64,000 nucleotides of DNA from Marsupella aquatica (taxonomy: Eukaryota > Plantae > Marchantiophyta). The stretch is taken from contig OZ316892.1 of NCBI GenBank assembly GCA_973895155.1, positions 1,739,223 through 1,803,222 of the forward strand, written 5' to 3'. Position 1 is the first letter of the stretch. Each line of letters starts with the position of its first letter. The position numbers and the translations under genes were made by a program. The notes under the pieces are model-generated. The model had not been told where the DNA came from, made no database searches, and was given only the letters and a program-made list of their open reading frames with translations. Positions 50,874 through 61,486 of the stretch are shown in pieces.

Positions 50874-52349
50874 TCACATGTAAGTATTTCCAACGCCCTC
50901 TTCATCACTCTCATCAAAACGAGTTTGGCGCCAACGGGCTTGGGCATGTGCATAGTCCCGGTCCCTCTTGTAAGTGCCATACAAAAAGGTATAGCAGAAG
51001 CAGCACAAACCAAAGGGCACTGCCATGACTGAGAACAACCCTCTAGAGAGCGCTCTGGCCTCTGTCACTGAACCTGTTTCTGGAATAACTTGATCTGCTC
51101 TGTAGCCAAACACGTTCTCGGACAGAAGTCCCACCATAGGAGCAGCCATGGCACCCCAGGACCCCTCAAAAGCCCGATCAAAAGCATACACCATTGTCCT
51201 ATTTTGTTCAGGAACGACATCTGCAAACATGGGATTGTTGGCACAGGCTTGGCACCAACTCACTGTCAACCCCATGAACAACATTGTGGCTGCATAGGAC
51301 ATGTAGTAGGCTGGATCTTGAGGCAAACATAGGAGAAGAAGATAAGAGAATGGAATGCCCATGAAAGAGCTGAACTGAGCACAATATATACGCCCGGAAC
51401 CAGGATACATCCTTTCAGCCGTGTCCCCCATCCATCCCCCAAAAAGGGCACCAACAGCACCGCCAGCTGCGAAGATGCCCATCAGGCTGGCTGCACCACT
51501 GTGTCCAAAACCTACAAGCTGCAACCACATTGTGAAAAATACCATTGCTGTCCAAGGTAATGACCCGACCAGCCCCTGTAGCACAATGATCTGGAAAGTG
51601 CGGACTTTCATGACTGCCTTCACAGCAATCCAGGAGTCTCTCCATGCAGTTTGAAGATTCTTGACCACTTTCTCTTCCTCGAGTCTCTCGCTGATCAATT
51701 GTCTGCCGCTTGCGGACCGTGATATTCTCGGAGTCCTGGGATCGGTGACGAGAGTATGCACAAGCCAACCTATGAGTGTGCTCACTACAGCCATTATTAA
51801 AAATGCCAATCGCCAGCCAGGTAGTGCTCCATAGGTGTGCCCTGCCATGATTGTTGCCATCATAGTACCCCCAATACCACCCACAGATCCAACGAGATTT
51901 AACCAACCAAATGCCACGCCTCTTGTTCCCTCCAAGTAGCTGTCAGCTGTGAAAGACTGAAGTGCAGGGATTACAATCGCCAGCCCGACACCATTAACAG
52001 CTCTGGAAAGAGCACACTGGAAAAAATTCTGAGACACAGCAACCGCTGCTGTGGACAGTCCCCAGAAAAGAGTGCCAAAACCTATCACAGATGGTCGATG
52101 ATATCGCATTGCTAAAAGCCCGGCGAGAGGAGACGAGATCGCCTGCACAAGTGACCTGATGAAAGTCAAGCTCCCCAGCTGTGATGGGCTGGCATTGAAT
52201 GCTTGGCCCACTTCCTTGTACACGGCTGGAAGCAAAGACTCATCCGCCTTCTCCATGATGGCGGCCAAATTTATCAAAATTAATGAGAGGGTGATCCCTC
52301 CCCATAACGCCTTCATTTTGTCCCTGTGCCCGGATGGGCTGTACAGCAT
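50874..52349 (-). CDS. Major facilitator superfamily transporter (spinster-like plant MFS), intronless CDS
   Basis: ~490-aa ORF with ~12 hydrophobic segments; LILINLAAIMEKADESLLPAVYKEVG, RAVNGVGLAIVIPALQSF, TFQIIVLQGLVGSLPW, VYAFDRAFEG, ARALSRGL, LYGTYKRDRD. Start ATG 52349 or 52316. Confidence 0.93.
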   Translation of the reverse strand: MLYSPSGHRDKMKALWGGITLSLILINLAAIMEKADESLLPAVYKEVGQAFNASPSQLGSLTFIRSLVQAISSPLAGLLAMRYHRPSVIGFGTLFWGLSTAAVAVSQNFFQCALSRAVNGVGLAIVIPALQSFTADSYLEGTRGVAFGWLNLVGSVGGIGGTMMATIMAGHTYGALPGWRLAFLIMAVVSTLIGWLVHTLVTDPRTPRISRSASGRQLISERLEEEKVVKNLQTAWRDSWIAVKAVMKVRTFQIIVLQGLVGSLPWTAMVFFTMWLQLVGFGHSGAASLMGIFAAGGAVGALFGGWMGDTAERMYPGSGRIYCAQFSSFMGIPFSYLLLLCLPQDPAYYMSYAATMLFMGLTVSWCQACANNPMFADVVPEQNRTMVYAFDRAFEGSWGAMAAPMVGLLSENVFGYRADQVIPETGSVTEARALSRGLFSVMAVPFGLCCFCYTFLYGTYKRDRDYAHAQARWRQTRFDESDEEGVGNTYM

Positions 52350-54075
52350 AGAAGCTAAACAGATAGAGCGCAATCTAAAGGCCCTTGCAGTCAGTAGTTC
52401 CCTCTGAAGTGCGGTCTACCAACTTCCTCCAGCTCAGAAATAAAAATGACTCAATTCGTTGACTGCGGGTGTGCCTTTCGATGCTGTACGCGCGTCCACG
52501 CTGCTCACTTGCCTCAACATGTCCCAATGCACCCAATTCCCGAGGCTGCAGCTACGTGACTATGCCGGTAGAAAATATGAAGTCCATCCAGGATGACAAC
52601 TTTCCATCCTGCTCCACCATGAAAATTCCCCTCACAGGCGATTGGCGGGTATGGGTTCTGCACAGAATTGTCACCGGACGAACGACTGTCCAAATGCCCG
52701 AGTTTATCTGATTTGCGGCCACAATATTGGCCGACGGAGGGAGGGAGTCTCTCGTGTCCCGTCTATAGAGTCGAATGTAATTCGCGATCTCCAACCCCAG
52801 TATTTCAACTCACGATGCTGGCATCCTTGAAGCTGTCGCCGGCGGACAAAATTTGATATTCAAACTCACAAGCGCATAGAACCATCAAACTATCCGCTAG
52901 CTCTCCACAAACTACGGCCGTTGCCATTCAGTCTGCAATGAGTCTCATCTCTTCTCGTCCCGTCTCGCCTAATGCTCGAGAAACTCTGGATCGGGAGATG
53001 CAAGCAAAAACAAAGAATCTCGAGTGCTAAACTCGTCCCCGAGACTGCACCAGTATCTCGTTTCCGCATTACAGGACACTCTTCAGCAGGGAGACTGCGT
53101 ATCATTCCAGGGTCGATTGCAATTTCCTAGATGGACTTGCCATCCGTCAAAGAAAACCTGAGTACAGTTCCACTCCCGAAAAATTGCGATAGCGGACTAG
53201 ACTAGACTAGACTAGACTAGAATAGACTTCCATGTGCCATGAATCAGTGAGAGAAACTTTCGGCAGGAAACCTGAGCATCACTCCCCGAATGGACGAATA
53301 CAAACCATCCGTCAACGAAACCCATCCTGAAAAACTTCTGTTCAATTCGTTGGACGAGTTCTCGCGCATCTCCACCAAATCCCAGCTCAAAAACTAAGTG
53401 AGCGACCGCAACAGCGAGCGGAGTAAAGTCGGTTTGTCTAGGTCCTTCCGGCGGCGCATCATCCAGACGCCCTGTCCCGTTCTCTCTTCTCCCCCTCTCA
53501 AATTAATCCTCGAAATGACTTGCCGTCCAGTCTCAATGCTCATCAGGGAACCAGTCCGATTCGGACTGACGAGAAAGAGGCTTCATGCTCGAGAGTCGGT
53601 GAGTCTGCAACTCCCAACTCACTCGTGCTCTCGAGACTCTGCCCGAATGAATGGTGCAGGCCGCGTGGGAGCTCCCGAAGCGAGGGAGTGATAATGAGCT
53701 CCAGAGTGCAATCAGTAAGTTGTCGAATGTCGATTGGAAGAAATTCGATTTGCAGAAAAGGGAAGAGAGGACCACGGGCGGAAGAAAGGAGAGTGACGAC
53801 CCTCGTGCTTCGACGAGTCATTCGTGCAGTCATCATCATGACGAGACCGTGGGCTTCCCTCGGATTTAGACCGCTACAGCATGGGGATAATAATGGAAAA
53901 CGGGTGTCAAGCTCTGCTAATTTGCTTTCCGTGGGTGTACTGGAAAGCCCTTTTCCATGCAGAGTCTAAAAGAGTATCCTCACCTATCTCTTGTAATAAT
54001 AGGCCTGGTGCTGGCAAAACTGGTGATATCCAAGTCTGCCCCCTCTTTTGCTTTGTTTTTGCATCCCAAGCCTGC

Positions 54076-54194
54076 ATCTGCATATCATTTTCTGGCTGGG
54101 GCACAATGAGGGTAGTGACCCCCATTTTTGGCCAGGTTTTCATCTGCATATCATTTTCTGGCTGGGGCACAATGAGGGTAGTGACCCCCATTTT
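54076..54194. repeat. Direct duplication with 66-bp period
   Basis: catctgcatatcattttctggctggggcacaatgagggtagtgacccccatttttg x2. Confidence 0.92.
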
Positions 54195-54723
54195 TGACCC
54201 GGTTTTCAGGGCGCATAAAAGAATCTCCCAGCCCTGCCAAATATCATCGACTCATGCTATAGTGCTAGTTGTTCACATCCGAAAAAAGAATTGAAATTTT
54301 AGGTATCAACTTAGTGAGTCTTTTTGTATGCTCTGGTGGTCAACAAAGACTTGGTGGGGCCTGTGCAGGGAAACAGACCCCCAACAAGGCCATTTGTTTT
54401 GAAAGGAACTTGCTCGGCCTGCCCTTCCTTGCAACCCCTCTACATCCTCATCTGGAGTCCTCCTGCTCTGTAGCAGTTACTCCCCAACAGGATTCCCAAT
54501 CAGGCCCCAATAGGGGCTTGTCAAAACAGGGTTGTAAGTGAGTTATGGTCAAGGACAGAAAGTATTTTTTATGGCCATAACAGAAAATCTTATGGGGTAC
54601 CTATAATGGTGCCTCATAAGGATCAGATGTCCAAAAAGTGGATGTCTGTAAGTGACAAAATGTCATTAACAGATAATTAATTACAGCCATAAGACCTAGA
54701 TTATGGTAGTGCTTTGACACACC

Positions 54724-54945: not shown

Positions 54946-56992
54946 AGATCAGACCTAGCCAAACTACAGTATACTCTTTGGCAATTCTGAACCATACCAT
55001 GCTCCAAGGTTTGATTCCAACTGCACCTTTGATAACTATAGTAAGATTCTCCACAAGACAGGCTGTCTCCTTAGGAATATTTTGTATATAGTAATGCTCT
55101 CGTAAAAGGACACTAATACACTTCTGAGGACTAAGAGATTTTTAGCTTTACTAATTTAAATGAAAGTAGACGGAGAAGTTTCATATGAGCTAATCCAAAT
55201 TTTCACTTTGCACTCTTCCCTAAAATTACAAAGAGGAAATTCATGAAGTGCATAGTTGACCATAACCCCCAAAAAACGACTGCTTCAGCTGGGGGGCTAT
55301 CATTGCATATAATGCCCTTGCTACATGGCGTTAAATAATGCACTTGAAGGCCTGAGATTTTCTACTTTCTCTAAAAGCAGAAGAGAAGTTTCATAATACC
55401 CCAGGATCAAAGTATGGACTGTGCATTCTTCTCCATAAAGCACCACAAATTACAAAGCGAAAATAGAAAAATCTAGAAGGGCATTAAATTCCCATACGAT
55501 GAACAGAAACAGGAGCCGCAAAGCAATTCGCCAAGAAGGAACTCAAATGTACGTGAATTGGACGCGTTGCCTGCTTCACATCTGCACAGGATACAATGAT
55601 CAGAGACAGAGAGAAAGAGAGGGACAGACTTGGATAATAAGCTTCCGTCGGTTCCTGTGTACTTCAAAATCAAAATAATATTGTGGTGGTGTTTTCAAAT
55701 GCATTAGTTATGAATGCTTTTGTCACAGAACAGTAGTACTGCTTTACAACAGCGCCCCGCCGGAAGTAAGGTCAGTAGTAAGGACGAGTAAAGTACTTTG
55801 CCAACGAACATCTGGTCTGGATTTCCTTCGTTGAATTGTGAGGGTTTTCTCCGGAGGCGTTGGATGCTGGTTTAATGACAATCCTATACAATTTGGACAA
55901 AGTTTCTAACTTCTCTAACGTTTGCCCTTGAATTCACCTAGTTCAGGACTACGACCTTCACGTTAGAGGGTTTAGAGGACCATCCTTCTGAGAAAGGGAT
56001 GGCTTTACATTGTTGAACCGAGTCGAGTGTGATCCGTTGCTCACGGATATGAAATGTCTAGGCCAAAAAATGCTTTCCCTGCAATTGAAACATTATCTCT
56101 TTTGTAGTTGTGGGTCAGGATCTAGTTCTCAGAGGACTTTGGAAGCACCTGCATAGTCCTGTTTGCAACTTGAGGTAGCAGTCACTAAGCAGAAACTCGA
56201 GCAAGCCACGAACTAGCGTCCTTCCTGTCGGACAGGGTTTAGGGTTTAGGTTTGTCACATTGACTGACTTCTCCGGTCATTCGTTAGATCTCGTGAGGTA
56301 TTTTCTAGAAGAGTTATTGAAAGTTATAGCTTCTTTGAAACGGAAGTTTTCGTCTTACCCTGCTTAACTTCTGCCTACCTTAAAAACCCCGATTCGAAGT
56401 CTACGACAATTGAAAATGTGCATCCCCTTTCGTCATTCTAATCTTTCTTTTTTGGACGGTTTATAACACATCTCATGGCTGGGATGTCAGGCATGTCCTG
56501 TTTGGCTGTTGTGTTCACATCGTCCAGGACAGCAGAGAAGAACGATTTTCTTGTAGTTGTTTTTTACTCTGTTTTCTTGTTTCCAGCATTGCGATGGGAA
56601 GGTCAAATGCGTGAAGAATGGGACAGACGGCAATTACAAAGCGAATTGCGGTATAATGCCTCTTTTGCCCGTTTGGCTTGGATTACACAACTCGGGCCTT
56701 TTCATTTGTCTGTCTCTTTGATTATAGACGACGGGCGTTTTGGAGTACTGACATGTTTCAGGAGTTTCCTAGGATAGTCGTCATGGATGAGTTCGTGCTC
56801 AAACTGCACTTCGTAGGAGGCTTTCACACTACTGCAGGTCACGAAAACTGCTGCTCGGCTCTAAACTTGTTATGTTCTCAGAATTGGGTAAATTGGGGCA
56901 TTGCTACCATAATGTCGTTCTAAAGAATTCTTTCGTTCAGTGCAGTGAGAGTTCAGGTTTTCCTGCTTGCTAAGTTTGAGCTGTGAGCACTC

Positions 56993-59900
56993 ATGTCTCT
57001 CAGCTATTCGATCCCTGTAAGTCATTCCTTCACCACGGTTGACGTCTGTGAAAAACTTATGCAGCTAGAATTTGTACTTCGCTGATACATAACCATACGT
57101 TTACTGATGGGTGGGGTGGAGAATGTACCACCCATCAAGTACGTATACACAGATGGCCTACCTGGTTGTTAGTTACTCATCACCAAGCTATACACTTCAA
57201 ATTCTTGTGATAAAAATTTGGTTCATTCACCGTCATACATGTTCTGTTGCTGCAGCGGCTTACAGACTGCGAAAGTATGGGAGTGCAGTGTCTCAAGTGG
57301 AGTCAGACCAGGCATAATTCGAGCAGCTGTCTGCCCGATCGGATTTATGGAATGGCGAGCACCTCGTCCACAGTTCATATGAGATCCAAGTTGGCAGCAA
57401 AAAGAAACTGGAACGTCGAAACGAAGAGGACCAACGAGGTGACTTGGAAGGGTCCTGCAAAATCTAATTATGGTGAGGGTCAAAATATTCTCGGAGATGG
57501 GGTATATAGTTTGAATACCTAGGAGAGGTGAAGGTTAAATGTGAGAGGTTTGCGCTGAGCTTTAGGATTAATCACTATGTGGACATTTTCAAATCAGTGG
57601 AAAACCTCGACCGGATGGAAGCCGATTATATCATACGTTATGTCCTGTGCATGGAAAATCATTTAGGGGATGAAATGTGAAAACTGTATCTACTCACATT
57701 CCTGTCCGTGCAGGCCAGATTGAAATTGTAGAAGAACGCTGGCGGCAGTTCTTCTCGGATCCTTCACAGTGGTGGGACCACAGGTCGGGTAAGGTGATAA
57801 GTTCACTAGAACCTCGAGCAAAGAAAATGGATAAAGAAAATCGCTTCGAGTGAGATGTTATATTGTGGCTCTTCTCTGTCAGTTTTGCTGGAACTCTGGC
57901 TTATTCACGTCAGAAAGATGTGATTGAAGCTTCGAACATATTCGAAATTTTGTGTGCCAGACCATCGTGAAATATCCAGAATTTAAGCTCTGAACATATT
58001 CGAATGTGTGTCTCCCAGACAAATGTGAAATTTCCAGATTTTAAGCATAAGCAGACCGAGGAGGCACTTTGGATCAATGACCAATTAAACCCTGAATGGG
58101 TGGAGGCTCAGCTGGCGACAATAGTACCAGGAACCGTAAAGCAGCCGCTATCTTACTGGAATAGAGAAATTGAAGGGAATATCAAGGAAAAAAATTACAA
58201 GATGGCGTTGGAGCTCTTCGAGCAAATGCGGCGAGAAGGGGTGCGAGCGGACAAATTCACGCTCAACGCAGTGCTCAGAGCCTGTGTTAAGACTCGAGCA
58301 CTTGAGAAGGGTAGAGATATTCACCGACAGGTCACTGAAGATGGATTTGAGGTGGACCCTTTCATTGGAACAACCCTGTTTGACATGTACGTTAAATGCG
58401 GGAAGGTTGATGATGCATACAAGGTGTTCAAGAACACGCCCAGAAAGGACGTGTTTTTGTGGACTTCCATGATCGTGGCGTATGCCAGGAGTGGGCGAGG
58501 AAAACAAGGGCTAAAACTATACCGAGAGATGGAGTCAGCAAATGTGGCTCCAGGTCCGAAGACATACGCTGCCGTCCTCAATGCTTGTGCCAATGTAGGA
58601 GCCCGGGAAGAAGGCAAACGTGTACATGCCCAGATCAAGCAAAGTGGTTGTGAATCTGATATCCTTGTAGGTAATAGCCTGGTTGACATGTATACCAAAA
58701 CTGGAGGCATTGACGATGCACAAAGTGTATTTGACAAGATGCACACACGAAGTGTGACAGTGTGGAATGCCATGATTGGGGTATATGTCAAAGGTGGACA
58801 AGCACAAAAGGGATTAGAACTTTATAAACAAATGCAAATGGAAGGAAAGGTGTTTATTCCTGCCACCTTCATGCTGGTACTTAAAGCTTGTACATGTCTA
58901 GGGGCACTCGATGAAGGCCGGCATGTGCATGCACACATCACTAAAAGTGGCTGTGAATCTAATGTTTTTGTGGCTGGGAGCCTAGTTGACATGTACGCCA
59001 AGTGTGGGAGCATAGAGGATGCAGAGAACGTCTTTGGCACGATTCCAGAATGGAATGCAATGTCCTGGACTACTTTGATTGGGGGATATGTAAAATGTGG
59101 ACGAGGGGAGAAGGCTCTAGAGTTATATCAACAAATGCAAGACGCAAAAGTGACCCCAGTTCCTGCAACTTTTGTGGGTGTCCTAAATGCATGTGCCTCT
59201 ATTGGTGCGCTGAAAGACGGACGGGAAGTTCATGCACAGATCATTCAAAGAGGTTGTGAAACGGACATGTTTGTGGGTAGTAGTCTGATTGCAATGTATT
59301 CGAAGTGTGGGAGCGTTATGGAAGCACGCGCAGTGTTCAATAAGATCAGTACACGCAACGTAGTATCTTGGAGTGCAATGATTCTTGCACATGTAAAATC
59401 TGGGGAAGGGAGGAAGGCAATAAAACTGTATCAGCAAATGCTCGGCCAGGGTTTGAGGCCATTTCCCGCCACCTTTCTCGCAGTTCTGAATGCATGTGCA
59501 AGTGTAGGTTCACTTGAAGATGGCAGGCGTATTCACGAACAGATCATTCAGAGTGGCTGTGAATCTGATATCTATATAAGGAGTAGCCTGATTGACATGT
59601 ATGCTAAATGTAGAAGCATACACGATGCAGAAAAGATATTCAGAAAAATTTGTAACCACAGTGTGGGCTCCTGGAATGCCATGATCAGCGGTTATGTGAG
59701 GTGTGGACAAGGACAGAAGGCATTGGATTTGTATAAACAAATGGAAGCAAAAGGGGTGGAGCCTGTTTCTGCCACATTTGTTGGCGTGCTCAGTGCTTGT
59801 GGAAATGAAAAGGCACTAGACTTCGGGAAGCGAATTCATGAGCAGGTAATCCAGAAGAACTATGAATCGGATGTATTTGTGGGTAGCAGCCTGATGGAGA

Positions 59901-61486
59901 TGTATTCGAAGTGTGGCAGCATAGAGGATGCAAGGGCAGTTTTCGATGTACTAAACACAAAGAATGTTGTCTGCTGGAATAATATGGTTTTAGGATATGT
60001 GCACTGCGGGCAAGGGGAGAAGGCATTAGAACTATTTAAGCGAATGGAATCAGAGGGAGTGGAGCTCAATAATCTCAGTTACATTGCAGGGCTTAATGCT
60101 TGTGCAAGTGTTGGAGGACTTGAAGAAGGCAGACGAGCCCATTCACAGATCATTGAAAATGGTTACGAGTCTCATGATTATTTGGCTAGTAGCTTGGTGA
60201 ACATGTACTCAAAATGTGGGAGCATGGAGGAAGCAGATAGCGTTTTTAACAAGATGCAGACGCCAGGTGTGGGCTCCTGGAATGCCATGATTATGGGACA
60301 TGTGCATTGTAAGGATGGGCAAAAGGCTCTAGAACTTTATTCCCAAATGAATGCAAAAAGGGTAGAGCCGATTCCGTTCACATTTGTGGCATTGTTGCAG
60401 GCATGTACAATTGTTGGGGCGCTTACAGAAGGCAGACGCATTCATAGACAGATTATTGAGAGTGGGTATGAGTCTAATGAACTTGTGGGCCATGCCCTTC
60501 TCGATATGTATTCCAAATGTGGATCCATGGAAAATGCACGGAAAGTTTTCAGTAGCATGGGGGTACGGAACTTGAACTGTTGGAATTCCATGCTAGAAGG
60601 ATATGCCATGCGTGGCCATGTCCAGGAAGCACGTCAGCTTTTCGAAACTATGTGCAACGAGAACGTAGAGTTAGACGCTGTTACGTTCACTTCTCTGCTG
60701 TCAGCTTGCAGGCATGGGGTTCTAGTGAAGGAAGGCCGTTACTATTTCAAGTCGATGACTTCAGAACACGGCATCTCACCAAGGAGAGAGCACTTTGCCT
60801 CCATGGCTGATCTTCTAGGCCGTTCTGGCCACTTGAAGGAGGCAGAGGACATGATCAACAGCATGAAAGGGAAACCTGATGTTCCAGTCTTGCTTGCCCT
60901 GCTTGAAGCTTGCAGAGTCCACGATAATGTCGAATCAGGTGAGCGAATTGCAGAACAAATTGTTGAAATTGGCCCTGGAAGTGCTTCTGGGTATGATGTC
61001 CTAGCAACCTTCTATGCGGCTGTACGGAAGTGGGATTGCAGAGAACATGTCAATCAGTTGAAAATGGAAAGAAATTGTAAAGAAGATCCTGAGTGCACCT
61101 TCATCGAAGTAAATGACGTAGTGCACTCATTTGCAGTGGATAAGCAAGATCATCCTCAACTAGGAGAGATTCACACTGAACTAAGGAGACTCTATCAATT
61201 GATGAAGGAAGCAGGTTATGAGCAAGATAGCCGCTTTGTGTTGCACGATAAAGAGATGGTATCACCTCTAAGTTATCACAGTGAAATGTTGGCTATCGGA
61301 TTAGGCCTCATTTGCACTACTCCTGGTACTCCCCTCCGTATCGTGAACAATGTTAAAGTGGCTGGGGACTGTCATAGTGCTAACAAGTTCATCTCAAGGG
61401 TTAGTGGTAGAACAATTATTGCAAGATATGGTAGCCTGTTTCACCGCTTTAAAAATGGTCTGTGCAGTTGCAGGGATTTTTGGTAA
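56993..61486 (+). CDS. PLS-class PPR protein with N-terminal PDF motif, ~27 PPR motifs, E1-E2 and a degenerate DYW domain (~1260 aa); exons 56993-57016, 57256-57472, 57714-57793, 58019-61486
   Basis: In-phase GT-AG junctions (CCT|GTAAGT, TGCAG|CGG, TATG|GTGAG, TGCAG|GC, AAG|GTGATA, CCCAG|ACA); 8 P-L-S triplets + P2-L2-S2; HSE...GDCH...FHRFKNGLCSCRDFW*. Exon 1 is less certain than the rest. Confidence 0.93.

Follow-up and report, generated by a model that had tools for sequence, protein, structure and literature searches.

A predicted spliced gene of Marsupella aquatica joins an OSB-type PDF motif to a PLS-class PPR protein with a degenerate DYW domain

The window, i.e. the whole 64,000-nucleotide stretch of Marsupella aquatica DNA analysed here, contains a gene whose predicted spliced product carries a PDF motif of the type found in OSB proteins, followed in order by 27 PLS-type PPR repeats, E1, E2 and a DYW domain. 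Judged from its sequence, this spliced PDF-PLS-DYW gene belongs to the DYW subgroup by architecture, and is neither an active editor by signature nor an OSB. The model, with four exons (56993-57016, 57256-57472, 57714-57793 and 58019-61486) and three GT..AG introns, encodes 1262 aa and was guided by an annotated protein of Calypogeia fissa, P0001 (CAM6127849.1, 1267 aa). P0001 was the sole database match for the start of exon 4 (2 candidates) and aligned with the window protein end to end at 78% identity, the exon 3/4 join being the same in both.

All features of the gene lie on the plus strand. Exon 1 (56993-57016) comprises 8 codons beginning with the predicted start codon, fits the N-terminus of P0001 and is followed by a GT donor at 57017. 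Exon 2 (57256-57472) encodes a leader that is rich in Ser/Thr and Arg/Lys by composition and is likely an organelle targeting peptide; residues 1-85 of the protein are identical to P0001 at 61 of 85 positions, the 2-3 acidic residues among residues 1-30 count against import, and translation may alternatively begin at a second in-frame Met, residue 41. The first half of the PDF motif, starting at about 57728, is encoded by exon 3 (57714-57793), and the second half by the beginning of exon 4 (58019-58120), which covers positions 27-59 of the OSB-derived profile described below; intron 3 (57794-58018; 225 nt, GT..AG, phase 0) thus lies inside the motif. Exon 4 continues with the PPR array (58148-60880; Pfam PPR families), E1 and E2 (60881-61087; Pfam E_motif, E=1.1e-8) and the DYW domain (61088-61486; Pfam DYW_deaminase, E=1.4e-25), with the stop codon at 61484-61486, and both the E_motif and DYW_deaminase matches exceed their curated cut-offs. 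Segmentation by fixed repeat lengths placed the 27 repeats in register as 8 tandem P1-L1-S1 triplets ending in P2-L2-S2, which is the architecture of the DYW subgroup. Elsewhere in the window, an uninterrupted frame of 513 codons at 50874-52415 on the minus strand presumably encodes a membrane transporter of the major-facilitator type, some 55 bases are directly duplicated at about 54080-54200, and a short dispersed repeat, matched by many unrelated contigs from all four sequencing runs that cover the stretch, was found upstream of the gene at about 55220-55460.

The PLS-class PPR array, E motifs and DYW domain are contained in a stop-to-stop frame of 1171 codons (57971-61486), the initial codons of which fall within an intron. 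The original prediction held that exon 57714-57793 (its exon 3) is spliced to 58019 (its exon 4), and that this restores a PDF motif, hidden by the intron, in frame with a PLS-E1-E2-DYW protein. As a predicted splice this join is well founded: a donor GT directly follows exon 57714-57793, an acceptor CAG directly precedes 58019, joining 57793 to 58019 leaves no stop before 61486, and the orthologue P0001 has the same join; the fusion and the exon numbering likewise agree with the four-exon model and the Pfam matches. Two alternative donors, at 57784 and 57789, were rejected, as P0001 agrees with the donor at 57794. Among the best 80 related loci, 4 (L053/L066, L078 and L080, representing 3 distinct genes) had a GT..AG intron at the identical codon boundary and in the same phase. 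Loci L004 and L078 were 99.2% identical, with the 141-nt intron of L078 cleanly missing from L004, and the pair shows that the homologous intron was removed in a putative transcript or retrocopy. In the read pieces listed for four runs, none of which is recorded as RNA, intron 3 was kept as in DNA, and no joint skipping it was found among them.

The relation of the motif to OSB proteins was assessed with an OSB-derived profile of 60 positions, built from 59 PDF motifs of 29 proteins that bear an SSB domain or are named OSB; these had been recovered via a PPR-borne profile and are therefore biased to similar motifs, yet they include named OSBs. Over positions 5-59 of this profile, the spliced window motif scored 80.3 bits, whereas 1000 shuffles reached at most 10.4 bits and the two unspliced halves 29.2 and 41.7 bits, so that its proposed alignment with the OSB PDF motif was upheld. 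The window motif retains every aromatic and basic residue that is typical of OSB motifs. With a profile made from ten PPR-borne motifs, 1245 cluster representatives were matched (E up to 0.001), and the best 150 of them comprised 27 with a Pfam SSB domain, 12 with PPR repeats and 111 with neither domain at E up to 1e-5; in one set of ten matches looked up by name, two were OSB3 of Amborella (P0042) and an OSB2-like protein of Asparagus (P0062). A word-based search of shorter proteins returned 6 proteins and no OSB, whereas the profile search did recover OSBs. Pfam holds no model for the PDF motif, a sequence search of the PDB with the motif profile gave best values of only E 0.88 and 1.1, the ESM Atlas yielded no usable match, and an exact-pattern scan of prokaryote genomes, a kind of scan that distant forms escape, gave 1 match out of 44 pattern matches, a 13-residue stretch judged spurious. 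The PDF motif of the orthologue, when modelled alone, was predicted to be a compact unit of helix, short strands and helix (pLDDT 88.7); fold searches with the motif alone (best Z 2.9, best Foldseek E 3.7) gave no indication of a known fold or of a new one.

OSB proteins are defined by an OB-fold/SSB-like domain upstream of C-terminal PDF motifs, according to a recent survey (PMC13393729). The window protein shares with OSBs (AtOSB1-4, P0042, P0062 and the Riccia proteins P0166/P0167) the PDF motif, which they carry in one to three copies, but it differs in having no OB-fold/SSB domain, in the N-terminal position of the motif and in the PPR array as partner. Only 85 residues precede the motif, and exon 2 gave no Pfam SSB match.

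In an alignment with OTP86, the window DYW domain replaces C920 with Ala, R895 with Met, K915 with Asn, L917 with Val and R945 with Leu, but retains H892, E894 and C923 along with all four of the structural zinc ligands (H924, H947, C954 and C956). Thus, the HxE at 61277 is followed by Met, and the first Cys of the CxxC is replaced by Ala (codon GCT at 61361), the Ala codon being confirmed by contigs of runs X1 and X3 with no differences. An intact HxE(x)nCxxC signature with a basic residue after the HxE is lacking from the window protein and both C. fissa copies. In addition, the PG box is degenerate and three residues of the gating domain are missing in the OTP86 alignment, while the terminal D-x-W is kept as DFW. 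Both Cys residues were kept in 16 of the 18 pattern-matched DYW domains of stored proteins and in 12 of the 13 found in loci; the Ala and Met substitutions are specific to the orthologous group of the window gene, the DYW domains of the family being mostly intact. It is reported that C920 is among the three catalytic zinc ligands, that R895 bonds to C920 and that R895A is inactive (PMC7611903), and in PpPPR65 editing is described as lost with alanine at any important residue of HxERx24CxxC (PMC6397227). Since the equivalents of both C920 and R895 are lost, the window copy is probably without editing activity and is likely a non-catalytic RNA binder, neither a DNA- nor an RNA-editing enzyme, although with the HxE and the structural zinc site retained it may have residual activity. 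The suggestion that a PPR-deaminase scaffold is aimed at DNA is not supported for this copy, in whose deaminase site one zinc ligand and another of the required residues are missing; it could apply only to intact relatives.

The arrangement of P1-L1-S1, P2-L2-S2, E1, E2 and DYW is shared with DYW-subgroup editing factors (PpPPR56/PpPPR65, OTP86 and the synthetic PPR-DYW protein 9kfx), from which the window protein differs by its N-terminal PDF motif, its incomplete catalytic zinc site and the absence of a canonical last code residue from most of its P1 repeats. Its DYW domain matched that of 9kfx with E=1.2e-45 and that of OTP86 with E=7.3e-27, and modelled repeats of a relative superposed on 9kfx with Z 24.4 and rmsd 0.8 over 138 aligned positions. 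By analogy, the protein also resembles PpPPR_43, which has a long PLS array, a DYW domain unlike those of editing factors and a non-editing role, this DYW-type protein being described as required for the splicing of cox1 intron 3 in Physcomitrium; in contrast to the window protein, no Physcomitrium PPR is listed with a PDF motif in the available text of the same review (PMC9459714; 0 occurrences of 'PDF').

The last code residues of the eight P1 repeats are D, G, I, V, F, V, N and I, and are therefore non-canonical in 6 of 8 (G, I, V, F, V and I), while position 5 of the P repeats remains N, T or S. Among pattern-matched P repeats, a canonical D, N or S as last residue was found in 1 of 7 in the window vs. 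142 of 158 in the family (Fisher p=2e-5, the rows being non-independent). With a code so degenerate, specific RNA binding is less well supported. Identity to P0001 is 53/56 for the PDF motif, 716/911 for the repeats, 46/69 for E1-E2 and 107/132 for the DYW domain, making the PDF motif the best-conserved part (95% vs. 79% for the repeats; p=0.002); against P0002, 51 of the 56 motif residues are identical (p=0.03). This conservation could reflect the folding of a tryptophan-rich 56-residue domain alone. Motif and repeat identities had also been compared over loci (61% vs. 38%, 25/25), a comparison that was biased, the loci having been picked by the motif, and was not relied on. The frame has remained open after 22% protein divergence, and 40 of the 55 differences in run X4 fell into 5 intronic, 15 synonymous and 20 non-synonymous ones, giving a pN/pS of 0.36 (p=0.004) from 35 coding differences. 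By these sequence comparisons, the gene is under purifying selection and is not decaying.

The PDF-PLS proteins form a family found in liverworts, Sphagnum, a lycophyte and a fern, and the similar unannotated liverwort proteins mentioned in the original prediction do exist. When proteins of 696-2218 aa were searched with the motif of the orthologue, 25 of 35 candidates matched, all with PPR repeats, including 14 from Diphasiastrum, 6 from Sphagnum and 3 from Calypogeia; the fern is represented by an Adiantum protein. No seed-plant PDF-PPR protein, in line with the proposed lack of the motif from angiosperm editing factors, was found among the 20 named of the best 150 of the 1245 profile matches, which is a weak test. 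A metagenome scan with the motif profile gave at least 551 relatives among the 600 pattern matches listed, and the best 80 were used. In a quick tree of 112 motifs and 58 columns, 49 of the 53 PPR-borne motifs fell into one group containing one OSB row (SH-aLRT 91), which adjoins two Riccia OSB motifs (SH-aLRT 96). Although the tree is weak, together with the shared linker and the shared intron it suggests a single main old capture of an OSB motif. The three motifs of P0047 and the second motif of P0068 (Adiantum capillus-veneris) lay outside the main group; these two PDF-PPR proteins have differing linkers, and a second PDF-PPR fusion is possible.

Other members vary in composition. The expansion in Diphasiastrum complanatum (P0003-P0014 and P0024) is distinguished by its linker and by PDF motifs in tandem, as many as three; the majority of its members end at or just past the E motifs without DYW, and P0006 has an intact DYW domain. 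P0033, of 1160 aa, has 13 matched PDF stretches, as compared with five in an example given in the available text of PMC13393729. On long genomic contigs, L005, L008 and other relatives show many uninterrupted PDF motifs and many broken frames. The many relatives with an uninterrupted motif and the many with broken frames suggest that the family was amplified by retroposition from an intron-bearing founder; as the locus search favours uninterrupted motifs, no proportion of intronless relatives is drawn from it.

On balance, we favour the reading that this PDF-(PLS)8-P2L2S2-E1E2-DYW protein is an organelle-imported, non-editing RNA binder to which the PDF motif adds a sequence-independent grip on single strands. 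Such a grip is favoured because the PDF motif of OSB1 is reported to be enough for ssDNA binding (review PMC6963530) and because AtOSB1/2 are reported to bind ssDNA in preference to RNA (review PMC4166229); OSB2 is described as binding as a tetramer (review PMC6963530), so a single PDF motif may bind weakly. The protein would be imported into plastid or mitochondrion, would have lost deaminase catalysis, and would bind a transcript through its PLS array with loosened specificity, acting in splicing, in stabilisation or as partner of an active DYW protein, by analogy with PpPPR_43. As PPR arrays are described as binding 5′ to 3′ starting at the N-terminus (PMC13041630), the PDF motif would be placed at the 5′ end of the site occupied, well away from the DYW domain. 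Following the OSB preference, its likeliest ligand would be ssDNA exposed in transcribed nucleoid regions, slightly likelier than the close alternative, upstream RNA; bound to ssDNA, the motif would keep the protein where nascent RNA emerges. By this analogy tethering to ssDNA or R-loops of the nucleoid, as originally proposed, is plausible. It is conceivable, and in our view rather doubtful, that capture of the OSB motif founded an ssDNA-anchored class of PPR proteins in seed-free plants, in which intact members would be co-transcriptional nucleoid editors and the disarmed copy an ssDNA/R-loop scaffold linking RNA processing to genome surveillance.

Other explanations were weighed against the preferred one. 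The PDF motif might instead cap the first PPR repeat, either structurally or as a site of protein interaction, its nucleic acid binding having been lost in the fusions, which we regard as possible if rather unlikely. In liverwort and moss members and in some of the lycophyte ones, the linker to the first P repeat is of near-fixed length and has a conserved Pro-Gly, and a model of the PDF motif plus four repeats of a relative was confident across the linker (pLDDT 89.9, pTM 0.76), as for a cap; however, the typical OSB residues are kept without exception, the lycophyte members resemble OSBs in carrying tandem PDF copies, as many as three, behind long linkers, and the motif is predicted to fold confidently alone. 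The erosion of code and catalysis around a well-kept PDF motif would also suit a role mainly on organelle DNA, in which the motif together with the degenerate repeats would cover ssDNA or R-loops and contribute to recombination surveillance of the OSB kind: designer PPRs are reported to bind ssDNA under the same rules with lower affinity (PMC13041630), and OSB1 to restrict mitochondrial R-loops (PMC8330923). Against this role, which seems to us improbable, the Physcomitrium PLS/DYW proteins of assigned function all act on RNA in the available text of a review (PMC9459714), and liverworts have retained ordinary OSB genes (Riccia P0166 and P0167).

A smaller chance still is given to an active C-to-U RNA editing factor whose PDF motif raises its affinity or places it at nucleoids. 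The complete E1-E2-DYW with HxE, second Cys, structural zinc ligands and DFW, the similarity of the DYW domain to that of the orthologue and the mostly intact domains of the family speak for such a factor, but the C920 and R895 equivalents are gone, alanine there abolished editing in characterised factors, and the PG box and gating domain are altered. Finally, the PDF motif could be a passenger of the amplification of the founder gene, and the window copy a slowly decaying duplicate. This is disfavoured and very improbable, for the short, interrupted frames of many related loci and the degenerate code and active site of the window copy are outweighed by its open frame, conserved exon joins, low pN/pS and a PDF motif better conserved than the repeats.

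A literature search, covering main texts and the best-ranked results for broad topics, found no published PDF-PPR protein. A 2026 survey of 182 OSB genes was restricted to proteins in which PDF and OB-fold occur together, and PPR is not mentioned in its available main text (PMC13393729), and the add-on domains of PPR proteins named in the available text of a review are RRM, SMR, NYN, LAGLIDADG, CBS and SAP, without the PDF motif. With no Pfam model, no solved structure among the matches and a frequent split by an intron, the motif can be missed by PPR catalogues. What is new in the window gene is that its DYW domain has Ala in place of a Cys that serves as catalytic zinc ligand and Met in place of the neighbouring basic residue. 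Kept over liverworts, mosses, a lycophyte and a fern, the PDF motif would add an accessory module, so far unrecognised, to the editing machinery of lineages among which Physcomitrium at least is without most of the seed-plant editosome cofactors. This raises the testable question of whether DNA anchors organelle editing factors or an extra single-strand grip aids them, for which the window copy would be a natural experiment, its catalysis and much of its code being eroded and its PDF motif retained.
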